Positions 8,514 to 41,453 of a stretch of DNA of 64,000 nucleotides are shown piece by piece. The DNA is taken from positions 576,001 to 640,000 of the forward strand of contig OY762428.1 in the NCBI GenBank assembly GCA_963665665.1, written 5' to 3'. This DNA comes from Candidatus Kapaibacterium sp. (lineage in GTDB: Bacteria > Bacteroidota > Ignavibacteria > Kapaibacteriales > UBA2268). Position 1 is the first letter of the stretch. The number at the start of each line of letters is the position of its first letter. Both the position numbers and the translations under genes were made by a program. The notes below the pieces were generated by a model. The model searched no databases, was not told the origin of the DNA, and saw only the letters and a program-made list of their open reading frames with translations.

Positions 8514-10694
8514 TCAGATATAGGCTTCTTTAATTTTTTCATTTTCCTCACGAACAATATTCCTTAGGTTTTCTATGCGGGTCTTCAGCTCATTAACTTT
8601 AGATTCAGCAGAATCATGCTCTGACTTTAACGTTCGCATTTTTTCGAGCATATCATTCATATCAATATTTAACTCTGTTATATTTGATTGGGTTTTATCA
8701 AGATTTTTCAATTCTTTATTAAAATCCATTCTTCTTTTAATAAACCTCCCGCTGTTTAGAGCTAACAAACCAGTAATTATCAGCAATATAATTCCAACCG
8801 CACTGCCTGAAAATCCATCAGCAAAATAAGTAATAAGGAAAACAATAAGAGTCGCTGAAATATTTATTAAAATAGGTTTTAAAGCGGTATTTTCAAGAGT
8901 TTCGTTCTTACGATTCCTAAGTGCAATTAGAACCTCTTCATTTTCAAGATACTGTTTCCTGATATTTTCATAGTCCTCCGCTTTTGTTTTCAGTGAGGCT
9001 TCAAGTTCTCTTTTGGTTTTTATTTGTCCGGTAAGTTCTTCTTCACTTAATTTTATCTTTTCCCTAATCTCATTCCGCCTTCTTTTCCAAAATTCCTCTA
9101 CACTGCTTCTAAGGTCATTAAAATAATCACTGTTATAAAGTTTAAAATATTCCCTGACAGATTCTCTGAATCTGTCTGCAAGAGCAATCGTAAATTTATT
9201 TCGTTGGAATAAGTCCGGTTTTTTGGTAACCAGATCATTAATTATATCAATTTTCTCCGGGACAATATACTTAATAGCAGAATTAACATCGAATGACCTG
9301 AAAATTGATATAACAAATAATGCTTCAATCTCTTTAGCTGTATATGAAGCAAGAAGTTGCGCTCCGGAATGAATTATTGCAGCCATTTTATCAAGCTGAC
9401 GGTAAGCAGCAGAAGCTTCAAAACGGAGAGCCTCCCTGATAAAATGCGATATTTCGGGAATTATCTGTACTCTTCCGTCGCTGCCTTCAATTATTTCGGC
9501 ATATTCAGGTGCATTCAGGAAAAAATTATACGCTTCAGCATAAAATTCCTTCAGAAGAGGCATACATTTCAGATCCTGAAGGTCGAAATCACCAAGGAAG
9601 GAAGCAGACATAAGCCAGTCCCGCTGATATTCCGGCAGATATTTCATAATCATGTCGGCAGCCTGCTGAAAGACTGATTTATCACCGTTGGTATTCTCAT
9701 GCCCGCCAACCCTCTGGATATCAATCCACAATTCAACCAGATAAGGAATACCTCTGGTAAGCCTGTAAATCATTTCCAGATCAAAATCTTTTCCCGGGAG
9801 CATTTCTTCAATAATCTCTTTCAGGTCATGCTTTTTGAAAGGGGCAAAATCAATTGAATACCTTCTTTTAAAAATATCAATATTTTTTACCGATAAAATT
9901 TCTTCAAGAGTTCTTTCTCTGGATGAAACGATAAACCTGAAATCAAACAGATCAACTACCCTCAGCCCAGCCGGGGCTGATGACATATCATAGAAATTAA
10001 AATCGCGGAGCTTCGCAGAATAATAATATCCTGCAAAAATTTCGGTAAGCCATTCGGATAAAGAACCGGTAATCTCATCAGAATTATCGATAATAAACAA
10101 TATCTTCAATGGTTTTTCCGGTTTCTCGAAATCATCCGGGTCAGCGATAGAAGGATAAAACCCCGTTATCAGGTCAATAATAAATGATTCAGCGCAAATT
10201 TTCCCATTCTGAAGCAATAGGGGCAACCGTTTATCATTAGGGAAATTTTCTTTAGCTAAATTTTCATAATGATTTTTATCAGGTTCAAAAAGCCTTAACT
10301 CGGGAGTAGATTTTAAATACAGATTATCAAGAATTAATTCATGAAATTCAAAGTTTTTTACTTTTGATTCAGGAATTATTTTATCAATATTCTCTTTGTT
10401 CGATATAGTCTCGGCAAAAATTAAATTTTTATTTTTATCAGGAACAATTTTCTGGTCAGCTATCTTGCAGAGCATATCGGGAAGGAACCTGATATCGTGA
10501 GCTGCATTTAATGGCAGAATTAAATCAAAATCACTATTCCTTACTACTGTATCTGCAATTCTGCGAACAAATGAAGTCTTGCCGGTACCAAATATTCCAC
10601 TTATCAAAAAGAACAAATTGGCAGCACCATCACCAGAAGGCATTGCCAAATTTTCACTAACTACCCTGACAAGGTCATTCTGACCGTTATCCAT
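8514..10694 (-). CDS. P-loop NTPase-domain protein with C-terminal coiled coils and two TM helices
   Basis: Walker A GIFGTGKT, possible Walker B ILFIIDN, long heptad stretches, hydrophobic pair near the C-terminus. Confidence 0.7.
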   Translation of the reverse strand: MDNGQNDLVRVVSENLAMPSGDGAANLFFLISGIFGTGKTSFVRRIADTVVRNSDFDLILPLNAAHDIRFLPDMLCKIADQKIVPDKNKNLIFAETISNKENIDKIIPESKVKNFEFHELILDNLYLKSTPELRLFEPDKNHYENLAKENFPNDKRLPLLLQNGKICAESFIIDLITGFYPSIADPDDFEKPEKPLKILFIIDNSDEITGSLSEWLTEIFAGYYYSAKLRDFNFYDMSSAPAGLRVVDLFDFRFIVSSRERTLEEILSVKNIDIFKRRYSIDFAPFKKHDLKEIIEEMLPGKDFDLEMIYRLTRGIPYLVELWIDIQRVGGHENTNGDKSVFQQAADMIMKYLPEYQRDWLMSASFLGDFDLQDLKCMPLLKEFYAEAYNFFLNAPEYAEIIEGSDGRVQIIPEISHFIREALRFEASAAYRQLDKMAAIIHSGAQLLASYTAKEIEALFVISIFRSFDVNSAIKYIVPEKIDIINDLVTKKPDLFQRNKFTIALADRFRESVREYFKLYNSDYFNDLRSSVEEFWKRRRNEIREKIKLSEEELTGQIKTKRELEASLKTKAEDYENIRKQYLENEEVLIALRNRKNETLENTALKPILINISATLIVFLITYFADGFSGSAVGIILLIITGLLALNSGRFIKRRMDFNKELKNLDKTQSNITELNIDMNDMLEKMRTLKSEHDSAESKVNELKTRIENLRNIVREENEKIKEAYI

Positions 10695-10709
10695 TAAACC
10701 CCCATAAAA

Positions 10710-11129
10710 TTAACTCAACAGGAATACCATTCTGAGCGTGGTACCCTCAGGCCCTGATTGGTAATTAACTTCGTCCATCAGTGTTTTAATCAAAAAAACC
10801 CCTCGCCCGCTGGCTTTCATAAGGTTTTCAGGCTGCCTTGGGTCAGCAACTTCCTCATGGTTGAATCCGCTGCCTTCATCCTGTATAGTAATTTGAATCT
10901 CACTGCCGGTAGCCTTAATATGGAAGTAAACTTTTTTATCGGGATTCTGATCATTCCCGTGGCAAATAGCATTATTCAAGGCTTCAGTAACAGCAATAAG
11001 CAAGTTATAAAATTTCTCGTCCGGAATATCTACTTTTTTCCGGATATCATAAAAAAGCGGTTCTACAATCTGTACAGATTTTTTATCGCTTTCGAGTTGT
11101 TTTTCTATTTCAAACAGAATTTTTTCCAT
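10710..11129 (-). CDS. RsbW/SpoIIAB-type anti-sigma factor (HATPase_c_2)
   Basis: AVTEALNNAICHGN, DEGSGF, GRGVFLIKTLMDEV. Confidence 0.92.
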   Translation of the reverse strand: MEKILFEIEKQLESDKKSVQIVEPLFYDIRKKVDIPDEKFYNLLIAVTEALNNAICHGNDQNPDKKVYFHIKATGSEIQITIQDEGSGFNHEEVADPRQPENLMKASGRGVFLIKTLMDEVNYQSGPEGTTLRMVFLLS

Positions 11130-17606: not shown

Positions 17607-19688
17607 TTATTTTTTGCAGTATTTATCCAGCCACTTGAAAAATTCTGTATTCCAGATAATAAATTCCTGAGGATGAGCAATGAAATGGGTTTCATTCGGG
17701 AAAATAATTATCTTTGAATCTATTCCCTGTGCCTGTGCAGCAGTAAAAGCCTCGAGGCTCTGCGTGTATGGAACACGAAAATCATACTCACCTGTTGTTA
17801 TCAATATTGGAGTATTCCAATTCTGAACGTATTTATGAGGTGAGAATTTCTCGTACTGCTCGCGATTTTCTTTTTCCCAATAGGGGCCGCCATATTCCCA
17901 GTTGGGAAACCACAATTCCTCGGTTGAACCATACATACTTTCAAAGTTAAATACCCCACAATGAGCAATAAATGCTTTAAATCTGTTATCATGGTGGCCG
18001 GCAAGCCAGAATGCAGCATAACCTCCGGCACTTGCTCCAACGGCACAAAGCCCGTCTTTGTCAACATAAGGTTCTTTTGCCATGGCATCGGTTGCGGCAA
18101 GAATATCAGTCATTGGCATTCCACCCCAGTCTTTGCTGATAGCATCATTCCAATCCTGTCCAAAGCCGGGAAGCCCCCTGCGGTTAGGAGCCATAACAAT
18201 ATACCCCTGAGAAGCCATCATGTAGTGATTCCAACGAAAATGGAAACGTGGAGTTATTGTTGACTGCGGCCCACCCTGAAGATAAGTTATCATTGGATAT
18301 TTTTTGTTTGGATCAAAGTTCGGAGGATATAATACCCAGCAGTGAACTTTCTTACCATCCGTAGATTCTACCCATTTCTCTTCAACTTTAATTTTTTCGT
18401 ATTTTATAGTTCTTGAAAAGTTTTCTTTTGTAAGCTGTACCAGTTCGCCACCATTAATTTTCAGCCTGAAATATTCTATGGGGTGCTGAAAATCCTGGCG
18501 TCCAACAACAAGGTAATTTCCGTCAGGAGTAATTTGCATACCACCACCATAATTATAAAACCCCTTGGTCAGCATTTCGTATTTTCCGGAAAGATCAATC
18601 TTATAAACCTGGATGGTAGCATTATCTCCGGCAGTAAAATAAATATTTTTACTATCAGGCGACCAAATATAATCATAAACCCATTGATCCAGATTTTTCG
18701 TAAGATATTCAATTTTCCCCGACTGACGATTATAAAGCATAAGGCGAATTTTGTCTGATTCAAACCCTGCTCTTTCCTGGCTGGTGAATGCTATCCATTT
18801 TCCATCAGGAGAATATTGAGGGAACTTATCAAAACCAGGCATATCTTTGGTAATATTTCTGGTTTTACCGGTATTGATATCAACAAGAAAAATATCTGTA
18901 TTTGTATTCATCTCGTAGTCAGGGGTTTTCTTGCTCGTGTAGGCAATCTGGTTTGATTCAGGCGACCAGGCAATCTCCTCGGCTCCTCCGAATGGTTTTA
19001 CCGGGGTTTCATATATTTCACCGTTCATCAGATCCTTTGCCTTACCACCACCAACAGGCTGAACAAATAAATGAGAATAATACTCATCATTCCAAACACT
19101 CCAGTGCCTTATAGGAAGATCATCGTATATTCTGATCTTTGCCTGGCTATAATCCGGGTATTGCTCTGCAACAGTTTTCTTCATTTGAACATCCGATGTG
19201 TAACAAACATATTTTCCATCCGGAGATATGTGATATGTTTCAACACCATTCGGGGCGTTAGTGATCATTTTTGCGCTGCCATTGGGATATTCGCCCGTAT
19301 AAACCTGGTTGCTTCCACTGCCACTGTTCAAATAAGCAATTTTCTTTCCGTCTTTCATCCAGCTGATACTGCTTTTCCCGTTATTATCTGCCGGGATATT
19401 TTTTCTGTCCTCGCCGTCAATACCAATTGAATACACTTTCGATTTGAATTTATTTGATTTTATATCAGGTATCCTGACGCTGTAAATTAATGTTTTTCCA
19501 TCAGGAGAAAGAACTGGCGACCCGAGTCTGCTTAACGACATCAGATCCTCGGCAGTAAAAATTTTACCTTCATGCTTAGTTGTTTTGGGTATTATATCCT
19601 GTGCATTAAGTGTAATATTCAAAACAAACAGGCCCAAAAATATTATGAAAAGATTTCTCATTCTTTTATCCAAAGATTTATAAAACAA
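17607..19688 (-). CDS. S9-family peptidase (dipeptidyl peptidase 5 / acylaminoacyl peptidase-like)
   Basis: PD40 repeats; GASAGG nucleophile; DFRVP; ETH. Confidence 0.95.
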   Translation of the reverse strand: MFYKSLDKRMRNLFIIFLGLFVLNITLNAQDIIPKTTKHEGKIFTAEDLMSLSRLGSPVLSPDGKTLIYSVRIPDIKSNKFKSKVYSIGIDGEDRKNIPADNNGKSSISWMKDGKKIAYLNSGSGSNQVYTGEYPNGSAKMITNAPNGVETYHISPDGKYVCYTSDVQMKKTVAEQYPDYSQAKIRIYDDLPIRHWSVWNDEYYSHLFVQPVGGGKAKDLMNGEIYETPVKPFGGAEEIAWSPESNQIAYTSKKTPDYEMNTNTDIFLVDINTGKTRNITKDMPGFDKFPQYSPDGKWIAFTSQERAGFESDKIRLMLYNRQSGKIEYLTKNLDQWVYDYIWSPDSKNIYFTAGDNATIQVYKIDLSGKYEMLTKGFYNYGGGMQITPDGNYLVVGRQDFQHPIEYFRLKINGGELVQLTKENFSRTIKYEKIKVEEKWVESTDGKKVHCWVLYPPNFDPNKKYPMITYLQGGPQSTITPRFHFRWNHYMMASQGYIVMAPNRRGLPGFGQDWNDAISKDWGGMPMTDILAATDAMAKEPYVDKDGLCAVGASAGGYAAFWLAGHHDNRFKAFIAHCGVFNFESMYGSTEELWFPNWEYGGPYWEKENREQYEKFSPHKYVQNWNTPILITTGEYDFRVPYTQSLEAFTAAQAQGIDSKIIIFPNETHFIAHPQEFIIWNTEFFKWLDKYCKK

Positions 19689-19888: not shown

Positions 19889-22800
19889 TTAAATCTCTAC
19901 TATCATCTTCTTCAGCTTGTCAGTCTGATCATGAAGGTAATGGGAGAGACGCAAAGCAAGGTCCGGATGTTTGGTAAGCAGCGTCTTCAGTTTGTCTTTC
20001 GGCAGCTTCATTATTCTCGCGGAACTTATTACCGGCTGGGCTGTAACAGAGGATTTGTCATCCCACACAGCACCTTCACCGAAAATCTCTCCTGTACCAA
20101 TTACATTGATAGTACCGAGCCATCCCATTACCGAGTGCCTCATCTGCTCGACAGCGCCCTCACGAATAAGGTAAACATCCCTGTTCATATCATTTTCCCA
20201 AACAACTTCCTCATCGGGATCGTAATATCTTTCCATGGCAATGCCGGCTAATGATGAAATAGCCTCGTCATCCATTTCTTTGAAGAGATCAAGTGAATTC
20301 AGGAATTCTATTCTCTGCTGCAATGAATTAACCACCATATTTCTCATTTTATTTTCATCAGGTTTCTTCCATTCAAACCCGCTGAGTTCAAGAGCTTTGG
20401 CTGTTTTATCAGAAAGGATATCCATCTTTGTGGCGTTGATTTTATCGAAGTCCTCGCTCAGCCAACCCTTGTGAAGCATTATTGCCTCGATAAACGGCCT
20501 GAATCCATCTCTTTCGAAATTTGAATAAAGGAAGTGAATGAATTCTTTCAGGTCGAATGTTTCCACGTTAAGGTTCAACTTACTGCCGGATAATATGTCT
20601 GAAATATCAACCTTCATCGGATTTTCGATGTGGTAAGTACTGTTCAACAGGTTTTCCCTTCCGGAAAGAGTAAGCACGGCATTACTGACGTAATCAACAA
20701 AAGAAAAGTCGTAATAATCACCCTTTAGAACAGCACCAATATTTATAAATGCACGGAAAATGTTATAAAATGCATTGTCATCAATATTCTGCTGGTGAAC
20801 TCCTGTCTCCGAATTATAAACTATATTTCCTATACGATAAATATTGGTTTTTATCCCTTTTTCACGGGCTGCGATAACCCTTGTTTCGGCTTCGAGTTTT
20901 GTTTTAACATAATAGTTATCTACTTCCTGGCCAATATCACATTTATCCTCGGAAAATAGAACAACATCATTGCCGGGAACATGTCCGAGAGCAACTGAAA
21001 TTGTCGAAATATGGTGAAAATCTTTTTTACGTCCGTCACCGGCAAAGGCAAGAATATTATCGGTTGCTTTCACATTAGCCCGATAGAAATCTTCGTAAGC
21101 GCCGTAGTGCTTAACAATCGCAGCTGAGTGCCATACACAGTCGCATTCTTCACAAAGCCGCGAATAATTTTCATTATCCAAACCCAAACTGTCTTCGGCA
21201 ATATCTCCGCATATTACCTCCACACCTGATTCCTGAATATCAATATAATCATTGGGGAAATAGAATTTCAGTTTATTTTCCAGCCTTTGCATTGCTTTAT
21301 CATTACTGTCGCCTCGCACAATGGCAGTAATTTTAACACCTTCTTTGCGGCTTAAATCCCTTAGCAGATAAATACCGAGATAACCTGTAGCCCCTGTTAA
21401 CAGTATATGCTTATAGCCATTGTGTACAGTCAGGTCAAGGCAGGCAAGCTGGCTGACTTCTTTCTGATATTCCTCTTCCTCGGTTTTCAATTCCGGTACT
21501 GTTCTGTAATCAACATCATTGAACTTAAATTCTCTCAGTTTTTCAAGCCTGATTTTCAGGTTATCCTCAGATTCATTGATATTTTCTGCAAGTTCTTCGA
21601 TTGTCGGATATTCAAAAATGTCATTTACCCGGACGTCGAAGTCCTTCTGGAGTTTAGCCGTCAGCGCCACGGCTTTCAGGCTGTGTCCGCCAAGTGAGAA
21701 GAAATCGTCTTTGATACTTATCTTATCAAGCCCGAGAATTTCCATCCATGCGTTAGCGATCTTTTCTTCCTTTTTATTTCGGGGAGCAACAAATTCTGCC
21801 CCTGAGGAAATTTTATCACCCGGTTCGGGAAGCTGGCGACGGTCAACCTTGCCGTTTGAGGTAAGCGGAAATTCATCCATGTGGATAAAGTATGACGGAA
21901 CCATGTAGTCCGGCAGATCCTTATGGAGAAATTCCCTGAGTTCATTAACAGTGATCTCATTTTCAGATACATAATAGGCACAGAGATATTTCTCGCCGTG
22001 TGTTTCTTCTTTAGCCAGAACAACTACTTTATTTATTTCATTATGTTTCAGCAGTTTATCTTCAATTTCTCCCAGTTCAATCCTGAATCCGCGTATCTTC
22101 ACCTGGAAGTCTATCCTTCCAAGATATTCCATTTCGCCGGACGGCAGCCTTCGGGCAAGGTCGCCGCTTCGGTACATTCTTTCTTTAGGGCGGTATGGGT
22201 TGGGAATAAATCTCTCCCCGGTTAGTTCTTCACGATTCATATAGCCACGTGCAACGCCTTCACCTCCAACACAAAGCTCTCCTGCAACTCCGTAGGGGAC
22301 GATATGCTGTTCAGTATCCATTATATAGCAGGTCAGTGTTGGTATAGGAAGCCCGATATTACTGATATTATTATCAATTTCATACTGACCTATTTCTTTA
22401 TAAGTCACATGTACGGTTGTTTCAGTGATACCATACATATTAATAAGTTTTGTTTCCGGGTAGCGTTTGTGGAAATTGTTCAGCAATATCGGCTTCAGAG
22501 CCTCACCGCCAAATATTACAAAGCGAAGGCCAAGTAATTTCTCTGTAAAATGTTCCTCGGTTTCTATCAGGTTATAGAATGCCCCGGGAGTCTGATTCAG
22601 TACTGTCACTTTTTTATCTGAAAGCAATTTGATAAAATCTTCCGGGTTTTGTGCTTCTTCCTTCGGAACAACCACAAGCTTACCACCGAACAGCAGCGGC
22701 CCGTACATTTCCCAAACCGAGAAATCAAATGAGAATGAATGGAATAAAGTCCAGACATCATGCTCGTCAAAATCAAACTGAAAGCGGCTGTTTTTCAGAA

Positions 22801-25800
22801 GGCGGACAAGATTGTGATGTTCAAGCATAACTCCCTTGGGTTTGCCTGTTGATCCTGAAGTATATATGATATAAATCATATCATCCGGACAGGATATTGG
22901 TTCAAGATTTTCACATTTTTCAGAGTAAAGTGCCTGATCATAAACATCAATGATTTCACCCTCAAAATCCAGCCTTTTTCCAAGTTCACTGCTTGATAGA
23001 AGAATCTTCGTACCACTGTCCGACAACATGAAATCAATTCTTTCCGGTGGATATTCGGGAATAACCGGCAGGTAAGCCCCGCCAGCTTTGATAATAGCCA
23101 GGGCACTGAGAACCATTTCCATTGAACGTTCCAGAAAAATGGCTACAATTGTATCAGCTTTAACGCCTTTACTTCTTAGTATTTTCGCAAGGCTGTTTGC
23201 TCTGTCGTTAAGTTCGCTGTATGTCCATGATTTGTCACCCAGCTCGATTGCTGTTCTTTCAGGAAAGCGTCTTACTGTTTCCTCGAATATCTCGTGGGCA
23301 GTTTTATTCTCCGGCCATTCTGCTTCCGTGTGGTTAAATTCATATAAAAGCGCTTTAAGTTCGTGGGAATCAATCATCTTCATGCTGCCAATTCTCATTT
23401 CCGGAGCCAGGCACATTTCGTTCATTATATTTTCCAGGTGGCGACACATTCTTGCAGCTGTTTCTTCTTTAAACAGGCTCGTTCTGTAGTACAGTTTTAG
23501 GTTGAGCATTTCATTCTGCTCTGTAAAGGTAAATGAAAGATCAAACTTAGCGCTGTGATTATTGAATTCCTTAATAACTGAATTTATTCCTTCAGATTGG
23601 AATTCGTAGCCTCCCATATTCTGCAGAACAAGTATTACATCAAATAATGGATTACGCCCCGATTCCCGGTTAACATTTATCTTATCATAAATATTCTCGA
23701 TCGGATAGTTCTGGTTTTCATACACGTCAAACAGTGTTGCTTTAACTTCATTAATCAGCTGAATAAAAGTCTTGTCTTTTTCGGGGAGGGCCCTGACTGG
23801 CAAAGTATTTACGAACATTCCGATCATATCCTCGGCCTCCTCTTTCAACCTGCCGCCCGTGGGCGAACCAATAACAATATCATTCTGATTTGTATATTTT
23901 GCCATAAGAACATACAGAGCAGACATAAGTACAACGTTCAGCGTAGTGTCCTGAGCTTTGGCTATCATATTGATTTTATTTGTAAGTTCAGGCATTATAT
24001 CAATTTCAAAAATATCGCCTTCATAATCGACCGATGCCTTTCTCGGCATATCTGTAGGAAGATCGAGTGTTGGTACATCAGCAAAGGTTTTTAGCCAGAA
24101 TTCCTCCTGTTTATGTATTTCATCGGACTGAATAATTTTATCTTCCCAACTAACATAATCCTTAAAGTGCAGTTTAAGAGCTTCGGGAGTTTCAGCGTTG
24201 TAAAATGCTGAAAGGTCCTTCATAAGAATAGTTAGTGAAATCCCGTCGAAAATAATATGGTGGAAATCCATCAGCAGGCATACTTTTTCTTTGGATATTC
24301 TTAGAAGTTTGAACCTTGCAAGGGGAGCCTTCTGCAGGTTGAACGGCCTGATAAATTCCAGCATTTTATCATTTATTTCATTATCCGAACAGTCGGCGAT
24401 CAAACGTTTTATCTTTGCCTTGGGATGAACTACCTGAACCGGAGTTCCATTTTTAACCTCAAATGATGTCCTTAATGCTTCGTGCCTTTCAACTAGTTTT
24501 TCAATAGCCTCGCTCAGGCGGGAAAGGTCAACATTTCCTTCAAGAGTTAAAATGCAGGGCACATTATATGTAGTACCGATATTTTTCATTTGCTCCAGTA
24601 CGAACAGCTGCCTTTGAGCGGATGATGCAGGGTAGAAGTTCGCAGGTTCTGCCGGAGTAAGTTCAATTATTTCATGCTTATCAGTCTGGTCAATATATTC
24701 TGCGAGCTTGGCAACTGTAGTCAGGTCAAAAAGGTTTTTAAGGCTAATTCTCAGGCTGAATTTTTTTTCTATCCTTGCCTGTAGAACAACCGCTTTAAGG
24801 GAGTGTCCGCCAAGATCAAAGAAATCATCATTTTTGCCGATCTTATCAATGCCAAGAATTTTTCCGAAAATTGAAGCAATGATTTTTTCTGTTTCGGTTT
24901 CAGGCTCTATATACTCTGTTTTTGATTCTTCAATAACTTTTGGTTCCGGCAGGGCCTTCCTGTCCACTTTGCCAACCGGAGTAAGCGGAATGGAATCAAT
25001 CCTCATCAGGTACTGCGGTATCATGTAATCCGGCAGAACCTCCCTTGCAGCAGCCTTAATTTTACCGGCATCCATTTCTTGATCTGCTATATAATAAGCG
25101 CAAAGATAAACACCCCGGGTATCCTGAATATCAACAACCACGGCATCTTTGATACCTTCAATATTTTTAATGGCTGTCTCAATCTCGCCAAGTTCAATCC
25201 TGTACCCCCTAACTTTAACCTGGCGATCAATCCTGCCAAGGTATTCAATCGTTCCGTCCGGCAGCCAGCGGCAAAGATCTCCGGTCCGATACATTCTTTC
25301 GCCGGTAACAGGGTTAGTAACAAAAACGGCATCTGTTTTTTCCGGCAGGTTCAGATAGCCTCTGGCAAGCTGTGCCCCTCCGACACATAGTTCACCCGGA
25401 ACTCCAATAGGCTGTAAATTGCTGAATTTATCAAAAATATAGCAAGGCGAATTCTTCACCGGATAGCCGATTGGAATATTCTTTTTAATTTCATTAACAT
25501 AGTAATATGTTGATATAACCGTATTCTCTGTCGGGCCGTAGCCATTAATCAGATCGAAACCGGTTTTTTTATATGACCTTAATTTCTCTCCGCCTGTAAT
25601 CAGCCAACGCATACTTTTATTCTTGGTAATCTCCATAAATTGTTCGCCAAACTGGGTTATCATCACAGCGGTTGTAATCTTATTCCGGACTATATAATCC
25701 TCAGTCTCAACAATAGACTTCCTTATCTCTTCAGATAAAATATGAAGTTCAGCACCGGCAAGCAACTGAGGGAAGATTTCAATTACGGAAGCGTCGAAAC

Positions 25801-27745
25801 TAAATGCCAAAGTTTTAAGGCAGCGGTCATTTTCATCCAGTTTGCCTTCTTCAATCAGCCACTGGCACATGTTAACAAGGGAATGATTCTCAATCATTAC
25901 TCCTTTGGGTTTGCCTGTGGAGCCTGATGTATAAATAATATAAGCAAGGCTATCAGGGCCGGACTCGGATGGTATTTTTTCCACCAAAAGGTAGTTGTTT
26001 CTGTCATCCAGATCAATTACAGCTCCGTTAAAATCAATTTCTTCGTATAAATGTCTTTGTGATATTAATATAGGAGCGGCGCTGTCGTCCAGCATATATT
26101 TTTTTCTGTCCGCAGGATATGAGGGATCTATCGGAACGAAACAGCTGCCTGATTTCAGTACTGCAATAAAAGCAACAATTATTTCTACTGACCGCTCAGC
26201 AAGAATTACAACAGGAACATCCGGACCGCCTCCATGTTCAATTATCCTTGATGCCAGGGCATCGGCCTTTTTATTTAGTTCAGCGTATGTAAGCTTATCA
26301 TCTTTGAATACTACAGCAGTTCTGTCAGAGAACATCCGGGCTGTCTTAGCAAACAGATCCTGGTAGGTAAAATCATGTTCAGGCAGTTCAACCGGCTTAT
26401 TGAAATGGTTCAGTATAATTGATTTTTCATAAACAGGCAGAATATCAATATCTGACAGTGCTATTTCCGAATTTTCAATCACCTGGAAAACGATTCGGTT
26501 AAGTGTATCGATAATTTCAACGGCTTTTTTATCGTTTATCAGATCAAGGTTGTAATTGATATTGAATTCAATAGGATTAAGTTCAGGATTATTATAATCA
26601 TAGGAAATAAACGCACATAATTCGCCCGGCCCTACATAAGAATTCACACTCGTAGATGTTGTTTCATTATCCAGAGTTTCAAAATTCTGTGCCAGGCTGA
26701 TAGTTACCATTTCATCAAACTTACCATGAATATTTTCCAGGGCATCAATTATTAGGTCGTAGGACAAATTTCCATGATCCACATATTTCTTAATTTTATT
26801 ATTAACAAATTTTATCAAATCAGAAAATGGGCCGTTAATATCTGATGTGATTCTGAAAGGCAGGTAGTTAACAAACATGCCAAAAGTATCTTTGAACTCC
26901 TCGGGCCGGTTTGCTATTGGAATGCCAATTGCAATATCGTTTTTGCCGCTTATCCTTGTCAGGTAAACATACATAGCAGCAAGGTAAAGTTTAAAAGCGG
27001 ATGTATGATGCTCACGTGTAAATTCAAATATTTTTTCACTTTCCTCTTTAGAAAGGAAAATAGTTTTAAGGCCGTTGGCCTTGCTTTCCATTTTATCAAA
27101 AGGATTAACCGCAACTGGTTCGGGAAGCGTTGAAAATTCTTCAAGCCAATAATTTTTATCCTCTTCGGCCCTGTTGCTTTTCAGGTAATTACTTTCATGG
27201 CCGGCAAAATCAGTATATGATTTTGTAATATTGGGTTCAGGTGTAACTCCTGCTTCAAATATTTGAGCTAATTCTGATATACGGTCTATCATCAGTTTCA
27301 TACACCAACCATCAACAATGGTGTGGTGAATATTCAGGTAATAGCCGTTTTTTCCGTCAGGAAGCTTTAAAAGCACAAATGAAAAAAGGTCAGAATCGAA
27401 TAGTTGAATTGGCTTACGGGAAATTGATTTTACCCATTCATTCATTTTAGTATTGTTTGTTTTTTCCCGTTCTTCAGATCCGGAAAAATCGATTATTTCA
27501 AATTCTCTTTCTTCATATTCAGCAATATATTGAAATATTTTATCTTCAACTTTAGTATATCTTATTCTTATACCTACGGTTTCATAAATGAAAAAATTGA
27601 TTGCTTTGGAGATTATTTCCGGAGAATAATCTTTTTTGAACCTTACTATCCTTGGAATATTCCACAAGGCGTTTTCCGGTTCCAGCAGGTCTATAAATAG
27701 CAGCCTCATTTGCGGGTGCGAAATCGGAATCAATTCTTTTTCCAT
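19889..27745 (-). CDS. Two-module NRPS C-A-T-C-A-T-R(thioester reductase) with C-terminal cNMP-binding (Crp-like) domain
   Basis: HHTIVDG and HHIIFDG; two YTSGSTGKPKG; two DDFFxLGGHSL; LLTGATGYLG plus YxxTK; C-terminal LF...VYLIREGAVE...GEIFGE. Confidence 0.95.
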   Translation of the reverse strand: MEKELIPISHPQMRLLFIDLLEPENALWNIPRIVRFKKDYSPEIISKAINFFIYETVGIRIRYTKVEDKIFQYIAEYEEREFEIIDFSGSEEREKTNNTKMNEWVKSISRKPIQLFDSDLFSFVLLKLPDGKNGYYLNIHHTIVDGWCMKLMIDRISELAQIFEAGVTPEPNITKSYTDFAGHESNYLKSNRAEEDKNYWLEEFSTLPEPVAVNPFDKMESKANGLKTIFLSKEESEKIFEFTREHHTSAFKLYLAAMYVYLTRISGKNDIAIGIPIANRPEEFKDTFGMFVNYLPFRITSDINGPFSDLIKFVNNKIKKYVDHGNLSYDLIIDALENIHGKFDEMVTISLAQNFETLDNETTSTSVNSYVGPGELCAFISYDYNNPELNPIEFNINYNLDLINDKKAVEIIDTLNRIVFQVIENSEIALSDIDILPVYEKSIILNHFNKPVELPEHDFTYQDLFAKTARMFSDRTAVVFKDDKLTYAELNKKADALASRIIEHGGGPDVPVVILAERSVEIIVAFIAVLKSGSCFVPIDPSYPADRKKYMLDDSAAPILISQRHLYEEIDFNGAVIDLDDRNNYLLVEKIPSESGPDSLAYIIYTSGSTGKPKGVMIENHSLVNMCQWLIEEGKLDENDRCLKTLAFSFDASVIEIFPQLLAGAELHILSEEIRKSIVETEDYIVRNKITTAVMITQFGEQFMEITKNKSMRWLITGGEKLRSYKKTGFDLINGYGPTENTVISTYYYVNEIKKNIPIGYPVKNSPCYIFDKFSNLQPIGVPGELCVGGAQLARGYLNLPEKTDAVFVTNPVTGERMYRTGDLCRWLPDGTIEYLGRIDRQVKVRGYRIELGEIETAIKNIEGIKDAVVVDIQDTRGVYLCAYYIADQEMDAGKIKAAAREVLPDYMIPQYLMRIDSIPLTPVGKVDRKALPEPKVIEESKTEYIEPETETEKIIASIFGKILGIDKIGKNDDFFDLGGHSLKAVVLQARIEKKFSLRISLKNLFDLTTVAKLAEYIDQTDKHEIIELTPAEPANFYPASSAQRQLFVLEQMKNIGTTYNVPCILTLEGNVDLSRLSEAIEKLVERHEALRTSFEVKNGTPVQVVHPKAKIKRLIADCSDNEINDKMLEFIRPFNLQKAPLARFKLLRISKEKVCLLMDFHHIIFDGISLTILMKDLSAFYNAETPEALKLHFKDYVSWEDKIIQSDEIHKQEEFWLKTFADVPTLDLPTDMPRKASVDYEGDIFEIDIMPELTNKINMIAKAQDTTLNVVLMSALYVLMAKYTNQNDIVIGSPTGGRLKEEAEDMIGMFVNTLPVRALPEKDKTFIQLINEVKATLFDVYENQNYPIENIYDKINVNRESGRNPLFDVILVLQNMGGYEFQSEGINSVIKEFNNHSAKFDLSFTFTEQNEMLNLKLYYRTSLFKEETAARMCRHLENIMNEMCLAPEMRIGSMKMIDSHELKALLYEFNHTEAEWPENKTAHEIFEETVRRFPERTAIELGDKSWTYSELNDRANSLAKILRSKGVKADTIVAIFLERSMEMVLSALAIIKAGGAYLPVIPEYPPERIDFMLSDSGTKILLSSSELGKRLDFEGEIIDVYDQALYSEKCENLEPISCPDDMIYIIYTSGSTGKPKGVMLEHHNLVRLLKNSRFQFDFDEHDVWTLFHSFSFDFSVWEMYGPLLFGGKLVVVPKEEAQNPEDFIKLLSDKKVTVLNQTPGAFYNLIETEEHFTEKLLGLRFVIFGGEALKPILLNNFHKRYPETKLINMYGITETTVHVTYKEIGQYEIDNNISNIGLPIPTLTCYIMDTEQHIVPYGVAGELCVGGEGVARGYMNREELTGERFIPNPYRPKERMYRSGDLARRLPSGEMEYLGRIDFQVKIRGFRIELGEIEDKLLKHNEINKVVVLAKEETHGEKYLCAYYVSENEITVNELREFLHKDLPDYMVPSYFIHMDEFPLTSNGKVDRRQLPEPGDKISSGAEFVAPRNKKEEKIANAWMEILGLDKISIKDDFFSLGGHSLKAVALTAKLQKDFDVRVNDIFEYPTIEELAENINESEDNLKIRLEKLREFKFNDVDYRTVPELKTEEEEYQKEVSQLACLDLTVHNGYKHILLTGATGYLGIYLLRDLSRKEGVKITAIVRGDSNDKAMQRLENKLKFYFPNDYIDIQESGVEVICGDIAEDSLGLDNENYSRLCEECDCVWHSAAIVKHYGAYEDFYRANVKATDNILAFAGDGRKKDFHHISTISVALGHVPGNDVVLFSEDKCDIGQEVDNYYVKTKLEAETRVIAAREKGIKTNIYRIGNIVYNSETGVHQQNIDDNAFYNIFRAFINIGAVLKGDYYDFSFVDYVSNAVLTLSGRENLLNSTYHIENPMKVDISDILSGSKLNLNVETFDLKEFIHFLYSNFERDGFRPFIEAIMLHKGWLSEDFDKINATKMDILSDKTAKALELSGFEWKKPDENKMRNMVVNSLQQRIEFLNSLDLFKEMDDEAISSLAGIAMERYYDPDEEVVWENDMNRDVYLIREGAVEQMRHSVMGWLGTINVIGTGEIFGEGAVWDDKSSVTAQPVISSARIMKLPKDKLKTLLTKHPDLALRLSHYLHDQTDKLKKMIVEI

Positions 27746-27779: not shown

Positions 27780-28436
27780 CTATATAAAATTAATTTTTTT
27801 GCCTGGTTCACAATCATAAATACAGCTTGTCAGTTTATAATTCTCATCAAAAAAGTGCTGTCCGAATTTAAACTTTTTCCATTCTTTATTTTCAGAAATA
27901 ATTTTAAATTTTTCAAGGTCAAAATCCAGGCCCAGAACATCAATCTTAAAGCCCTTACCTAAAGCCTTAATGAAACTTTCTTTAATCGTCCATAATGTAT
28001 AAAACCTGTTAAATCTTTCTGCGTAAGTACTTGAATTTATGAAATCAATCTGTCGCCTGTTAAACACAGTTGGCGCTATCTCATCAATATCAATATCAAT
28101 AATCTCCTCAATATCAATACCACAGGGCTGATCTGAAATTATGCAGGCAATATAATCACCTGAGTGAGATATGTTAAAGTAAAAATCCGAAGGCATTGCC
28201 GGATATGGCTTCAAATCCTTATCTGTTCTTATTATAATATCTTCGAAATTAATACCGGATTTTCTTCTGATCACTTCCCGAATAAGCCAGTCACCTTTAA
28301 GTGATCTGAGACGGTCGCTATCTAACTTCTTTTTTTGAATATACTTTTTTCTCTCGAATGGCAAATAATTCAAAAGGAAGGAATAATCTTCCGATTTCTC
28401 TGATTTTTCGATATAACTTAGGTAAATCTCGTTCAA
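27780..28436 (-). CDS. sfp: Sfp-type 4'-phosphopantetheinyl transferase
   Basis: FNISHSG, GIDIE, WTIKESFIKALGKG. Confidence 0.95.
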   Translation of the reverse strand: MNEIYLSYIEKSEKSEDYSFLLNYLPFERKKYIQKKKLDSDRLRSLKGDWLIREVIRRKSGINFEDIIIRTDKDLKPYPAMPSDFYFNISHSGDYIACIISDQPCGIDIEEIIDIDIDEIAPTVFNRRQIDFINSSTYAERFNRFYTLWTIKESFIKALGKGFKIDVLGLDFDLEKFKIISENKEWKKFKFGQHFFDENYKLTSCIYDCEPGKKINFI

Positions 28437-36453: not shown

Positions 36454-36797
36454 ATAAAACAGTTCTTATCTGAGATAGAAAAAGCAATTAATGACTGACT
36501 TTAATATTTTTTTCAATATAAATGCTCTTCTCGGGACCCCAAAAAATACTTCAGGAATCACTTTTACCAGATTACGATTTTTTCAATCAATCCTTCATTT
36601 TTTATCTGTCAATTTTTCAACAAACGCTTAATTTGCTTGAGTTAAATAATAAAATTCAAGATGTCTTATTAACTTGCCTTTCTCATGAAAATTTACGATA
36701 TTGATATTTGTAAATATTGGGGATGTCCGTAGATAGATTATGTTTTTTAGAAAATTTATCATTAGGGGCGCTAATAATCCGAAAACCAGAGGAACAC

Positions 36798-39700
36798 ATG
36801 AAAAAAGCAATTATTACATTATTACTCCTGCTGCCGATAGCAGCCCAGGCACAAAGCCTGAAACTATTCGACATTGATACAACTGACTATCCCGTTATAA
36901 GGGCAAAAATATGGGCTTTCGATGAAAACGGAAAACAAATTACAAATCTTTCCCCTTCCGATTTTGAAATAACCGAGGATGGAGTACTAAGGGATGTTAT
37001 AAGTGTTTCGTGCCCGGAGCAGCAACCGGCCAATGCAGTTTCAAGTGTTTTATCATTTGATATTTCTGCCTCAATGCTCGGGGAAAATATGTCAATGGCC
37101 AAGAAGGCAGGTACGGTATGGATAAACGGTTTATCTCTTGGTATAAACGAATGTGCAATAACATCATTCGATCTGAAAAATTACCTGAATCAGGATTTTA
37201 CAACAAACAAAGACAAATTGCTGAATGCTCTAAACAGCTTACAAACATTAGGAAGTACAAATTTTGATGCCGGATTTATTGATCCAATGGCCGGGGCTTT
37301 ACTGGTAGCAGAAAAAGGTGATTTGAAAAGAGTAGTGGTTTTCCTTACTGACGGTATTGCTAAAGGGGATGAATATGCAATTATTGACAAAGCTAATGAA
37401 ATAAACGCGACGGTGTTTTGTGTAACATTGAACATGCCCTGCCCGGAAATATTAAAGAATATTTCTGAAAAAACCGGCGGGGAGTGGTTTGACAACATTA
37501 TATCAGCATCACAAGCCGAGGCTGTTTACCAAAGCATTCTTCAAACAGTTCGGGGCGGAAAACCCTGCGAGATTGAATGGCATAGCAGGCCTGCCTGTTC
37601 AAGAACTGACCAAACAATTGTTGAGATGGAATTATCGGTAAATCAGAGCCAGGCTGTGGGACATTACAACACTCCTTATAATTCAGTTGCAAACCTTGAA
37701 ATAAATCCACCATACATTAAATTCACCGATCCTGATATTGGTGTTGAAAACTATCGGCAAATAACAATAACTGCAAGGAATGCAGACTTTGATGTTAGCA
37801 ACATCAAAGTTTCTAATTCTGATTATGACATTAGTCCGAAAAGTTTTTTTCTTGCAAAGGATCAGAGTAAAATCCTGGATGTGAGTTATACTCCCGCCGG
37901 CAAAGATTATTCATATTGTAAGTTTACAATTGAAAATGATATATGTGAACAAGATTACAGTGTAAGCGGGCAGCATTCCGGCGGAGGTTTCAATAAAAAT
38001 TATTTGAAACTGACACATCCAAACGGGGGTGAAAACATTTATATTGGTTCTGATTATCTAATTACATGGGAAGGAATTCTACCTTGTGATACTATCGGCT
38101 TAACTTTATCGAGAGATAATGGAAATAGCTGGGAAATAATTGATAATAATGCAACTAATCTATCTTACTCATGGAATAATATTTTTGGGCCGGAAAGTGA
38201 AAAATGTTTGATCAAAGCTGTTTATGGTGCTACTACACGTCCCCGAATTCTTTGGGAGAAAAATTATGGTGGAAGTTTAGGAGAGCAGGCTGAATCAATC
38301 ATTGAGCTTAAAGACGGCAACCTGATTGTTGTTGGCCGTTCAGAATCAAAAGACGGGAATGTGTCAGAAAATCATGGTGAATGGGATTACTGGATAGTAA
38401 AAATTAATCCTGATAACCGAAGTATCATCTGGGAAAGATCTTACGGAGGCAGTAAATGGGATTATGCCCAATCGATTATTGAGATGAAAGACGGAAGTTT
38501 GGCTGTAGCAGGTTATTCATGGTCTCAGGACGGAGATGTATCCGGAAATCATGGCGGATTAGATTGCTGGATATTGAAATTAGATCAAACTGACGGAAGT
38601 ATCATTTGGAAACAATCTTTTGGCGGGAGCAACTATGATTTTGCCGAATCAATTATTGAAACAAATGACGGGAATCTTGTTTTTGCTGGATTTTCCAGTT
38701 CTGATGACGGAGATATAACGGAAAGCCATGGAAAGCATAGTTATTGGATAGTCAAGCTCAATTCCGGCGACGGCAAAATAATTTGGAATAAATCTTTTGG
38801 TGGAAGCGAATGGGACGAAGCCTATGATATAATTGAGATGAAAGACGGCAGCCTGGCTGTTGCAGGAAAATCCAATTCTTCTGACGGTGATGTTACAGGC
38901 AATCACGCTTGGGCAGATTATTGGATACTGAAACTCAATCCGAATGATGGATCATTAATATGGGAAAAATCCCTTGGGGGTAGCAGTGACGATATTCCGG
39001 CTTCCATAATCCAACTTAATGATGATGCTCTTGTTGTTGCAGGGTATTCAACTTCATCAAATGGCGATGTAAAAGGTAATCATGGTGACTTCGATTACTG
39101 GATCGTAAAATTGGAACCAACAGATGGAAGTATTATTTGGGAAAGGTCTCTTGGCGGAACAAGCGCCGACTATGCTAATTCAGTTATCGGGCTTGAGGAC
39201 TGTAGCATCGTTGTAGGCGGCTATTCTTATTCAACCGACGGTGATGTTACAGATAGTCATGGTGATTTCGATTTTTGGATTACAAAATTGGAACCGGCAG
39301 ATGGCAGTATAATTTGGGAGAAAACTCTTGGCGGAAGTGCAGACGACAGGGCTAATGCTCTGACTGTTCTGACTGATAAGAGTTTTTTGATTGCCGGTTA
39401 TTCTTATTCAAATGACGGCGATCCAGGAAACAACTACGGCCTTGATGATTTCTGGATTGTGAAGTTGACAGAACCTCAACCTCTGCTATCGGATACATCC
39501 GACGCTGTTTTCTCCATTTTCGCTCCTCATGCTGTGAGCCGTGATATTGATATGAAGCAGGTGTTGGTGGGAATTACCAAGGATTCAGTAGTTAAAGAAT
39601 TTATAATGAATACCGGGCTGCACCCGTGCAGAATTGATTCTATATACATTCGCGGCGCTGATGCCGGAGCGTTCAGCCTTGTTTCCGGTTTTCCCGTCTA

Positions 39701-41453
39701 TACCGTGAATATTTCAGAAAACCACTCAGGGGAATTCCGATTCCGGCCTACCGAAACAAGAATATACGAAGCGGAAATTGTGATCATAACTCAGAATGAT
39801 ACACTATTCCAGGCAATTCGTGGCGAAGGAATTGAACCCCGATTGCAAATTGTTAATAAATTGATAGATTTCGGCCAGGTAAGGCTTGGGGAATACAGAG
39901 ACACTCTGGATGTGCTGACAATAAAAAACACCGGGACTAATCCAATTGATATTCTGAGTACTAATCATTCATGGCCTAATGATGTTGACTTTACCACCCG
40001 AAACGGCGCCGGGCCTTTCACGCTTCAGCCCGGAGAGGAATGGCCAATGACACTGCGCTTTACCCCTGGCGAAGCCGGCCGGACAAGCGGAATACTGGAA
40101 TTTCATTATACTGGAGTGGGAAGCCCCGAGACTATTCAATTGTTCGGTGAGGGGTATTCGAAACCGGAAATTGATACGGCTTTCACAAATTTTGAAAACC
40201 TGGACTGTGAAAGTAAAGACTATCGGAATTTTAATATTATAAATACCGGAGCCTTCAGCATAACGGTTTCTGAAATATATCTTTCGGGCAGTAACCCGGG
40301 CGATTTTCAAATTGATATTAACCTTCCGCTGATAATTGAGCCCGGCAGTACTGAAACTATCGCTGTAGAATTTGCACCACAGGAAATCGGGGTAAGATCT
40401 GCCGAACTGAATATTATATCCGATGCCGTGAATTTCCCCTTAGTAAATTATACCTATAGCGCAAGAAAAGACAGCGTCGCACTCAACTGGCAAAATATTG
40501 AGATAGATTTTGGTACGATAAGAACCAACCGCCATATTGATACAACAATAATTATTGGCAATAACGGAACAATTGCCAATACGGGGTTAATAAGCGGAAA
40601 TTCAGAATTTAATATTGATAAAGATGCGGTCAGGCTGAATGCCGGAGAAAGTGGAGAAATCACAATATCCTACAGTGGATCACCCACACCAACATCCCTT
40701 GATGAAGAGTTAGTACTGACTGATTCGATCTGCGGCAGGCAGTCGAATATCCGGATAAAAGCAAATATTGAAGCTCTTGCCACCGCATCTGTCAGATTAG
40801 CGGATATTCAGGCAATGCCCGAATCAAAAATTGTAATTCCCATAGTCCTCGACGCTGAGAATGATATCGGCAATTCGGGGATCGAAACAATATCAGTTGA
40901 TTTTATTTATAACCCGACAGTTCTCTATCCTCTGGACTATTCCCAGGTTTATCTTAGCAACGACGAGGCGAAGATAAGAATTGACGGGCTGAACATACTT
41001 GCAAATCAGGGCGATACTCTGCGAAATATCCGTTTTTCAGTTGGCCTTGGCAATTCTGAAAACAGTGTGCTTCGCCTGTCCAACCCTGAATATGACGACA
41101 GCATTGCAGATATAACCCTGATTGACGGCACATTCACACTTCTCGGCGTATGCCGCGAGGGAGGAGCAAGGCTGATAAACCCGGACATAGAGGCCGGAAT
41201 AATCAACATCTCCCCCAACCCGGCGGAAAAGAGCCTTAATATCGAAATCTCCCTGATAGAAGAAGGACAGACAGAACTTTCAATATTCAATTCCTTCGGG
41301 GAATCTGTAAAGAGCGTTTTTTCAGCAAATAACGAAACCACGGGCGTAAAAAAATTCAAAGCTGACATAAGCAATCTTGCCAACGGCGTTTACTATGTAA
41401 TACTGAAAACTCCCAACCAGCATTTTATCGAGAAGGTGCTGGTGATAAGGTAG
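36798..41453 (+). CDS. Large secreted T9SS protein: vWA, 7-bladed repeat region, choice-of-anchor D Ig domains, C-terminal sorting domain
   Basis: MIDAS DISASM...FLTDG; seven IIWEKSLGGS...GDV.GNHG..DYW repeats; ISPNP...NGVYYV. Confidence 0.9.
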   Translation: MKKAIITLLLLLPIAAQAQSLKLFDIDTTDYPVIRAKIWAFDENGKQITNLSPSDFEITEDGVLRDVISVSCPEQQPANAVSSVLSFDISASMLGENMSMAKKAGTVWINGLSLGINECAITSFDLKNYLNQDFTTNKDKLLNALNSLQTLGSTNFDAGFIDPMAGALLVAEKGDLKRVVVFLTDGIAKGDEYAIIDKANEINATVFCVTLNMPCPEILKNISEKTGGEWFDNIISASQAEAVYQSILQTVRGGKPCEIEWHSRPACSRTDQTIVEMELSVNQSQAVGHYNTPYNSVANLEINPPYIKFTDPDIGVENYRQITITARNADFDVSNIKVSNSDYDISPKSFFLAKDQSKILDVSYTPAGKDYSYCKFTIENDICEQDYSVSGQHSGGGFNKNYLKLTHPNGGENIYIGSDYLITWEGILPCDTIGLTLSRDNGNSWEIIDNNATNLSYSWNNIFGPESEKCLIKAVYGATTRPRILWEKNYGGSLGEQAESIIELKDGNLIVVGRSESKDGNVSENHGEWDYWIVKINPDNRSIIWERSYGGSKWDYAQSIIEMKDGSLAVAGYSWSQDGDVSGNHGGLDCWILKLDQTDGSIIWKQSFGGSNYDFAESIIETNDGNLVFAGFSSSDDGDITESHGKHSYWIVKLNSGDGKIIWNKSFGGSEWDEAYDIIEMKDGSLAVAGKSNSSDGDVTGNHAWADYWILKLNPNDGSLIWEKSLGGSSDDIPASIIQLNDDALVVAGYSTSSNGDVKGNHGDFDYWIVKLEPTDGSIIWERSLGGTSADYANSVIGLEDCSIVVGGYSYSTDGDVTDSHGDFDFWITKLEPADGSIIWEKTLGGSADDRANALTVLTDKSFLIAGYSYSNDGDPGNNYGLDDFWIVKLTEPQPLLSDTSDAVFSIFAPHAVSRDIDMKQVLVGITKDSVVKEFIMNTGLHPCRIDSIYIRGADAGAFSLVSGFPVYTVNISENHSGEFRFRPTETRIYEAEIVIITQNDTLFQAIRGEGIEPRLQIVNKLIDFGQVRLGEYRDTLDVLTIKNTGTNPIDILSTNHSWPNDVDFTTRNGAGPFTLQPGEEWPMTLRFTPGEAGRTSGILEFHYTGVGSPETIQLFGEGYSKPEIDTAFTNFENLDCESKDYRNFNIINTGAFSITVSEIYLSGSNPGDFQIDINLPLIIEPGSTETIAVEFAPQEIGVRSAELNIISDAVNFPLVNYTYSARKDSVALNWQNIEIDFGTIRTNRHIDTTIIIGNNGTIANTGLISGNSEFNIDKDAVRLNAGESGEITISYSGSPTPTSLDEELVLTDSICGRQSNIRIKANIEALATASVRLADIQAMPESKIVIPIVLDAENDIGNSGIETISVDFIYNPTVLYPLDYSQVYLSNDEAKIRIDGLNILANQGDTLRNIRFSVGLGNSENSVLRLSNPEYDDSIADITLIDGTFTLLGVCREGGARLINPDIEAGIINISPNPAEKSLNIEISLIEEGQTELSIFNSFGESVKSVFSANNETTGVKKFKADISNLANGVYYVILKTPNQHFIEKVLVIR

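Follow-up and report, generated by a model that had tools for sequence, protein, structure and literature searches.

A Nonribosomal Peptide Synthetase That Continues beyond Its Terminal Reductase into a Cyclic-Nucleotide-Binding Fold

A nonribosomal peptide synthetase (NRPS) gene occupies positions 19889..27745 of the minus strand in a 64,000-nucleotide (nt) stretch of Candidatus Kapaibacterium sp. (assembly GCA_963665665.1, contig OY762428.1, positions 576,001 to 640,000), the whole of which is called the window below. Its product is an NRPS of the terminal-reductase type that carries an additional, undescribed domain at its end, an ending common to dozens of enzymes. Terminal thioester reductase (R) domains are treated as the end of the NRPS line, and the regulation of these enzymes is thought of as transcriptional. 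In the window protein R is not the last domain of the synthetase, as 148 more residues with a cyclic-nucleotide-binding (CNB) fold come after it. Having lost the contact with the cyclic-nucleotide phosphate, this tail would most likely act as a CRP-like homodimerization module. No description of an NRPS-CNB fusion was found in the literature at the level of titles and abstracts; the one literature match for PF00027, PMC10663231, deals, judging by its title and the opening of its abstract, with the classification of clusters by regulatory mechanisms.

The gene and its domains, of the condensation (C), adenylation (A), thiolation (T), R, and CNB types, are listed here with their residue numbers in the protein (aa, amino acids; ORF, open reading frame; HMM, hidden Markov model; AF2, AlphaFold2).

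19889..27745, minus strand: NRPS gene (protein P0001), C-A-T-C-A-T-R-CNB, 2618 aa (ORF list, translation, Pfam)
26420..27736, minus strand: condensation domain 1, residues 4-442 (PF00668; HHTIVDG motif)
24968..26353, minus strand: adenylation domain 1, residues 465-926 (PF00501 at 465-798 and PF13193, AMP-binding_C, at 854-926)
24692..24880, minus strand: thiolation domain 1, residues 956-1018 (PF00550)
23345..24640, minus strand: condensation domain 2, residues 1036-1467 (PF00668)
21848..23287, minus strand: adenylation domain 2, residues 1487-1966 (PF00501 at 1487-1835 and PF13193 at 1893-1966)
21584..21766, minus strand: thiolation domain 2, residues 1994-2054 (PF00550; GGHSL motif)
20327..21409, minus strand: terminal thioester reductase (R), residues 2113-2473 (PF07993)
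19892..20335, minus strand: C-terminal CNB-fold (CRP effector-like) domain, residues 2471-2618 (PF00027, family HMM extent, AF2, Foldseek)
20111..20140, minus strand: β4-β5 hairpin RHSVMGWLGT, residues 2536-2545 (family-specific motif, column counts)
20036..20080, minus strand: degenerate phosphate-binding cassette GEGAVWDDKSSVTAQ, residues 2556-2570, with Val for Arg (alignment with PKG I CNB-B)
19892..19966, minus strand: terminal C-helix with hydrophobic heptad, residues 2594-2618 (predicted seam of a parallel coiled-coil dimer, with in-register self-contacts)

A CNB Fold behind the Terminal Reductase

The ORF is uninterrupted, and R begins at residue 2113 of its 2618-aa NRPS product, directly after the second T domain (1994-2054). 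NAD_binding_4 (PF07993) matches residues 2116-2357 with 167.5 bits (E 3.9e-49; cut-off 20.1), and the R region scores 203.9 bits against TIGR01746, slightly below the cut-off of 213.35. Both the TGATGYLG and the Y..TK motifs are found in the translation. Among the 55 CNB-tailed family members (see following), positions T38, G39, T41, G42, G45, S168, T169, Y200, and K204 of R are unchanged in every row, that is, the TGxxGxxG Rossmann motif and the catalytic S/T-Y-K are invariant.

The tail has a CRP-type effector (CNB) fold with a long C-helix. In the scan of the whole protein, cNMP_binding (PF00027) matches residues 2506-2593 with 37.4 bits, above the gathering cut-off of 27.5, and the final 203 aa scanned separately reach 42.7 bits (E 5.6e-11, far beyond chance). 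A profile built from 26 family tails, which served for the search of the PDB and for the two-copy prediction described below, matches solved CNB domains of PKG, PKA, and the CRP family with E values of 1e-23 to 1e-28. The AF2 model of the 150-residue tail (mean predicted local distance difference test, pLDDT, 94.9; predicted template-modeling score, pTM, 0.87) has strands and helices in the CNB order, an eight-stranded β-barrel, and a terminal helix of 24 residues. Foldseek superposes this model on cAMP-bound GlxR (3r6s) with a template-modeling score (TM) of 0.84 and a root-mean-square deviation (rmsd) of 1.9 Å over 141 columns, and on Mycobacterium tuberculosis CRP (MtbCRP) with a TM of 0.83 and an rmsd of about 2 Å, the superposition taking in the C-helix. 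The matches to the effector domain and C-helix of CRP-family proteins as a whole (GlxR 3r6s/4cyd, MtbCRP 3mzh/4a2u, and Thermus thermophilus CAP 4ev0) have a TM of 0.77-0.84. In the ESM Atlas the tail matches generic CNB-domain clusters and nothing else. The tail differs from these regulators in that it lacks the DNA-binding winged helix-turn-helix (HTH) and the cassette Arg and is fused to an enzyme: no HTH family appeared in the Pfam scans, and the protein stops at I2618, where the C-helix ends.

A first-pass annotation, made from the letters of the DNA, had proposed an R domain followed by a domain with the CNB fold, and had suggested looking for PF00027 after PF07993 and predicting the structure. 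The fold behind R is real on all these lines of evidence, namely the Pfam match above cut-off in the expected order, the profile matches, the AF2 model, and the Foldseek superpositions on GlxR and MtbCRP. Every string that it quoted is in the translation, LLTGATGYLG and YVKTK in R, and FLNSLDLF, VYLIREGAVE, GEIFGE, FGEGAVWDDKSSVTA, and HPDLALRL in the tail. The extent that it gave for the domain, 19892-20310, agrees with the family HMM at 19892 and is slightly short at the other boundary, which the HMM places at 20335 (residues 2471-2618, 148 aa).

The model of R and CNB together (539 residues) reaches a pLDDT of 92.3 and a pTM of 0.89, scores consistent with a fixed arrangement of the two domains. 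Its PDB matches by Foldseek are the terminal reductases MxaA R (4w4t), archaeal T-R (6vtj), and AusA R (4f6c), and they span the R part alone, with a query-normalized TM of at most 0.58. The solved R domains of MxaA (4w4t/4u7w), the archaeal T-R protein (6vtj), and carboxylic acid reductase (5msv) share the fold of the short-chain dehydrogenase/reductase type (E 1e-20 to 1e-25), and none of the solved R chains in the matches listed has a CNB extension.

A Family of CNB-Tailed Synthetases

With residues 2080-2618 as the query, 568 homologs were found at E ≤ 0.001, and the 120 best were taken; 55 of these 120 carry the CNB domain according to HMMs built here. All 55 have the CNB domain at the extreme C-terminus, with an envelope that begins two residues ahead of the point where the R envelope ends. 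As the two envelopes overlap, there is no linker between R and CNB, and the last 148 residues would join directly onto the last helix of R. No truncated CNB domain occurs among the 55. A precomputed PF00027 match exists for 52 of them, the other three (P0027, P0036, and P0041) being below the cut-off at 18.6, 19.3, and 23.5 bits. The figure of 55 is a lower bound and not the size of the family. A search of a representative library was dominated by proteins with multiple CNB repeats, and 34 of its best 150 hits had the appearance of family members, namely a single match of full length at the C-terminus.

The usual form of the family is a protein of about 2600 aa with the order C-A-T-C-A-T-R-CNB. 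There are also one-module members (P0011, P0025, and P0044), a three-module one (P0196, 3636 aa), and a four-module one (P0184, 4895 aa). The sources are Acidobacteria, Eremiobacterota/Vulcanimicrobiota, Negativicutes, Bacillota, Ozemobacteraceae, Bacteroidales/Bacteroidota, Desulfotalea, Desulfovibrio, Synergistia, Cyanobacteriota, and Muiribacteriota, nearly all of them metagenome-assembled genomes (MAGs). The gene is patchily distributed, since 40 genomes of the family or order of the window organism contain no match spanning R and CNB. These 40 genomes have weak CNB matches in unrelated ORFs alone, mostly of about 625 aa. The genome of the window organism has a 626-aa ORF of this sort, with a CNB-like stretch (G000:C1:3576375-3576734), and similar ORFs, mostly of about 615-670 aa, are found in the relatives L002-L008, those of L002 and L005 having in-frame stops.

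A tree of the R domains was constructed with FastTree from 116 rows, after the partial sequences P0060, P0111, P0112, and P0116 were dropped; it is unrooted and has SH-like supports only. All 55 CNB-bearing R domains lie in one clade of 74 rows, together with 19 rows lacking CNB. Presence of the CNB domain requires three changes on the tree, at least two of which are forced by well-supported branches, and none of 500 label shuffles gave so low a number, a test in which related sequences share labels anyway. The pattern fits an old fusion followed by later losses.

Two proteins from these searches stand apart from the family. P0228 (515 aa) is an ATP-grasp_2 (SucC-like) enzyme that ends in the same CNB subtype, with a GWVGT hairpin and an Arg-less cassette. 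If P0228 is a true gene and not an assembly chimera, the tail may not be exclusive to NRPSs. P0069, an NRPS of 2356 aa from a Spirochaetales MAG, has an ordinary terminal R without CNB. Its second A domain is interrupted by two stretches of PilZ, a family of c-di-GMP receptors (the best at 1703-1786), which separate the core (1123-1479) from the C-terminal subdomain (1805-1839). It represents a second, different second-messenger-type domain within an NRPS.

Loss of the Phosphate-Binding Arginine

The first-pass annotation had noticed that the Arg of the canonical phosphate cassette seemed to be absent, and this holds throughout the family. In the phmmer alignment V2567 stands opposite the cassette Arg of PKG I CNB-B (VRTA motif), and the Thr-Ala that follows is retained. 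The profile alignment places the cassette two columns away from the phmmer alignment, and therefore all candidate columns (486-492) were counted: none of the 55 members has an Arg or Lys in any of them. The Gly-Glu that opens the cassette is G2556-E2557 in the window protein, and the family has Gly in 52 and Glu in 39 of its 55 members.

The family has conserved residues of its own instead, and on the β4-β5 hairpin it shares the motif [RK]-x-[SN]-x-x-G-W-x-G-T. The residue at 2536 is basic in 54/55, S/N2538 is kept in 54/55, G2541-W2542 in 55/55, G2544 in 54/55, and T2545 in 47/55. Elsewhere in the domain, G2530 (55/55), E2517 (54/55), and E2570 (43/55) are also conserved. Within the alignments made here the hairpin is specific to the NRPS-tail family. 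In PKG I CNB-B the counterpart of T2545 is the β5 Leu just before the base-contacting Arg, and the hairpin motif falls where PKG contacts the base.

A CNB fold without the Arg that binds the cyclic nucleoside monophosphate (cNMP) has precedents in the CRP/FNR protein NtcA and in the CNB-homology domain (CNBHD) of KCNH channels (3ukn). CooA, CprK, and PrfA likewise have the fold without cNMP binding, and in this whole group it serves other ligands or intramolecular contacts. Unlike the window tail, none of these five is part of a biosynthetic assembly line. CNB domains joined to or inserted into a catalytic or structural protein are found in PKG and PKA, in PycTIR (8jsk; PADLOC PDLC02371), and in family 2B encapsulin (NF041163); the cAMP-dependent acetyltransferase of mycobacteria is another CNB-fused enzyme. 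To our knowledge, CNB-regulated enzymes all keep a functional cassette and bind cyclic nucleotide, whereas the window tail has no such cassette.

The Predicted Dimer

When two copies of the tail were modeled together, the prediction scored 0.82, 0.82, and 0.81 in three runs, and the best control scored 0.00. The runs share at least 98% of their contacts, and the pLDDT of the partner is 90. For comparison, 20 of 30 proteins with structures solved as pairs attain this mark, as does 1 of 23 with structures solved as single chains. The predicted interface is made by the terminal helices (tail residues 122-150, P0001 2590-2618), by the hairpin (tail 66-71 and 76-79, or 2534-2539 and 2544-2547), and by the cassette (tail 89-93 and 98-99, or 2557-2561 and 2566-2567). 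In-register self-contacts are predicted at tail positions 133, 136, 140, 143, and 147, a spacing of 3-4 residues that gives a parallel two-fold helix pair. The heptad columns are hydrophobic in the family as a whole and, among the 55 members, hold Leu (31); Leu (13) or Met (13); Val (22) or Thr (12); Leu (36) or Ala (14); and Phe (20), Ile (13), Val (10), or Met (9). The predicted geometry, with the C-helix and the β4-β5 flap in the interface, is that of the CRP dimer.

These data favor what the first-pass annotation had offered as its fallback, a dimerization module. The tail would be a CRP-type module tying two synthetases together tail to tail, to which we give about an even chance (roughly 0.5). 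The two C-helices would pair in parallel and in register as a coiled coil, with the conserved β4-β5 hairpin and the degenerate cassette of one subunit lying against the helix of its partner. The conserved cleft at this interface may, in addition, bind a ligand other than a classical cNMP.

Several points weigh against this interpretation. CRP-family dimers are in the PDB, and the score of the two-copy prediction may thus reflect likeness to these solved structures and is no proof of pairing; a dimer would also have to suit the way in which CNB sits on R. The window protein has Ser at heptad position 133, where 31 of the 55 members have Leu. The conserved residues of the cleft (W2542, T2545, E2570, and the cassette Gly-Glu) equally fit a ligand site. 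The CNB domain varies more than R, with a mean pairwise identity of 30.8% versus 43.8% over 1485 pairs, which suggests a domain under constraint yet evolving faster than its neighbor. NRPSs are generally regarded as monomers, and it is not evident what function the pairing of two release domains would serve.

Other Roles for the Tail

The strongest competitor to dimerization, about half as credible or slightly less, is that the tail is a switch for a ligand other than a cNMP. The remodeled cleft (hairpin, Arg-less cassette, and C-helix of the partner) would bind a small molecule and control R or the docking of T, a signal passed through the rigid helix to R turning reductive off-loading on or off; such a switch is compatible with a dimer. 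CRP/FNR relatives bind 2-oxoglutarate, heme, or other effectors, and NtcA and other non-cNMP members of that group are among the profile matches. Invariant or near-invariant residues stand where CNB domains contact base and ribose (T2545, and G2556-E2557 at the opening of the cassette), the junction with R is rigid and linker-free in 55/55 with a didomain pTM of 0.89, and direct CNB-enzyme fusions exist (PycTIR 8jsk, family 2B encapsulin). However, there is no nameable ligand, the cassette Glu is kept in 39/55 only, and no conserved neighbor gene points to a signal. Moreover, the conserved residues of the cleft also belong to the interface of the predicted dimer, which explains their conservation without a ligand.

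It is improbable that the tail docks onto another protein, such as an exporter or a signaling protein, instead of onto itself. This was weighed with nine related loci (L009-L017), found with an 8-row alignment of closer members; 30 neighboring ORFs were scanned at six of them (L009, L012, L013, L014, L015, and L016). Each of the two Bacteroidota loci (L014 and L015) has a gene for an MFS transporter next to the NRPS; in L015 a 4′-phosphopantetheinyl transferase (PPTase) also follows the NRPS. In L009 and L012 a sensor phosphatase of the dCache-HAMP-SpoIIE (PP2C) type is convergent to the CNB-tailed NRPS (L009:10518-13919, L012:2859-5831), about 60-250 nt from its end, and ORFs of the same size in L010, L011, and L017 have 88-96% identity to that of L009. 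Such partners would suit a docking module, but neither neighbor is general, and the window NRPS has no adjoining MFS or SpoIIE gene. The loci L009, L010, L011, and L017 share 88-96% identity among themselves and so represent one lineage, to which L012 (about 50%) adds a second; the SpoIIE neighborhood thus comes from two lineages only. The strong prediction of self-association also argues against docking.

A true cNMP sensor, responding to cAMP, cGMP, cCMP, or cUMP and gating reductive release, is very unlikely. The first-pass annotation had supposed that a second messenger might gate release, and this idea finds no support: the cNMP-defining residues are lost family-wide, Glu is kept in 39/55, and no cyclase was found next to the gene among the neighbors scanned. 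Classical sensing of cAMP or cGMP by the tail is unlikely because the canonical phosphate-binding Arg is absent from all 55 members (V2567 in the window protein, 0/55 Arg or Lys in columns 486-492). Neither the 17 window ORFs scanned nor the 30 neighboring ORFs scanned at six of the nine related loci included a cyclase gene next to the NRPS. In favor of a cNMP are the closest relatives in sequence and fold, PKG, PKA, GlxR, and MtbCRP, which bind one, and two class III cyclase homologs (PF00211) above the Pfam cut-off in the same genome. These lie at about 3.70 and 0.89 Mb (G000:C1:3695147-3695674 and 886880-887251; L018, L019), the window being at 0.576-0.640 Mb, and because of them cNMP signaling may exist in the organism. 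Matches to Pycsar CNB-TIR effectors in PADLOC also lean this way, and are weak (E 3.6e-5 and weaker). With the Arg missing as well, an assignment of the tail to Pycsar was dropped.

The least likely explanation is that the tail is a relic with no function today; the loss of the cNMP-binding residues and the 19 CNB-less rows inside the clade of all 55 CNB rows, which indicate that some descendants dropped the domain, would agree with it, but the junction is identical in 55/55 across many phyla, several residues are invariant, truncations are absent, and the models are confident (pLDDT 92.3 and 94.9).

At least 55 protein clusters from many phyla have a conserved fold of sensors and dimerizers attached directly to their release domain, a hint at an unexplored layer in these enzymes. 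Two assembly lines might be obligately paired, or the release of the product might be under post-translational control. If the ligand switch were true, this would be the first NRPS in which a metabolite or signal directly controls the release step, in a family spread across many phyla, most of them uncultured. The tail is of interest to NRPS enzymologists and to engineers of reductive release, and the family provides a test case for the re-use of the CNB fold after loss of the cyclic nucleotide. Work on it would be inexpensive, since the R-CNB didomain has 540 aa and the models are confident.

Product and Related Synthetases

The bimodular enzyme would make an N-acylated dipeptide that is released reductively; any effect of the tail on R activity is likewise conjectural. 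Condensation domain 1 is probably a starter, acylating C domain, since no T domain precedes it. The A-domain signatures, read by hand, are DAIVIGGVIK for module 1 and DFWNIGMVH+K for module 2. The latter is presumably the Thr code, and the second residue of the product would then probably be Thr. The signature of the last A domain takes 27 distinct forms among the 55 members while the CNB motifs are constant, and hence the function of the tail is not tuned to one peptide, which argues against a product-specific sensor.

The nearest known system is that of aureusimine in Staphylococcus aureus, formed by AusA (A-T-C-A-T-R) and its PPTase AusB; both it and the window enzyme are dimodular NRPSs with a terminal reductase. 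Among models of the equivalog type, the window R region matches AusA best, as the window PPTase does AusB (see following), and AusA R (4f6c) is among the fold matches of R. However, the match to the AusA-type synthetase model NF047350 covers the R region only, with 152.8 bits for a cut-off of 2500. Relative to AusA, the window enzyme adds an N-terminal C domain and the C-terminal CNB domain, which AusA is not known to have. The gut-commensal NRPSs for dipeptide aldehydes studied by Guo et al. in 2017 are reportedly small, with a terminal R domain, and the R-only Clostridium homologs among the 120 proteins taken here (P0063-P0065) have no CNB tail. In passages of PMC8210680, AusA is described as a dimodular NRPS with a terminal thioester reductase whose product is a dipeptide aldehyde, reductases of the AusA type are said to release dipeptide aldehydes that N-acyl tails can stabilize, and some products of gut-commensal NRPSs are given as N-acylated dipeptide aldehydes that inhibit proteases.

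Neighboring Genes

Two genes flank the synthetase gene closely.

27780..28436, minus strand: 4′-phosphopantetheinyl transferase (PF01648, PF22624), ending 35 nt upstream of the NRPS start
17607..19688, minus strand: Dpp5-like S9 dipeptidyl-peptidase (NF053518, 796.6 bits versus a cut-off of 900; Peptidase_S9), 200 nt downstream

The PPTase is a probable operon partner of the NRPS. Its best NCBIfam match is AusB, with 80.8 bits for an equivalog cut-off of 225. The Dpp5-like peptidase adjoins an NRPS whose product may be a peptide aldehyde, and compounds of this class are known protease inhibitors. Membership of the S9 peptidase in the cluster is unsupported, as none was found beside the NRPS among the neighbors scanned at six of the nine related loci. 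Scans for promoters and terminators at the gene ends gave nothing over the shuffled expectation save three weak terminator-like sites inside the PPTase gene.

The locus L009 is labeled as coming from a Synergistia MAG, but its NRPS and neighboring genes are 86-96% identical to those of L010, L011, and L017, which are labeled Vulcanimicrobiota; because of this identity, one of the bins is probably mis-assigned.

Farther away in the window, a 726-aa protein (8514-11129, minus strand) has a weak match to the NACHT P-loop (21.3 bits, below the cut-off) and adjoins a 139-aa RsbW-like serine kinase/anti-sigma factor (HATPase_c_2, 97.9 bits). On the plus strand, 36717-41453 encodes a protein of 1578 aa that speaks for the Bacteroidota origin of the window; it has VWA, a PQQ-like β-propeller, several Ig domains of the HYDIN/ASH type, and a type IX secretion sorting domain at its C-terminus.

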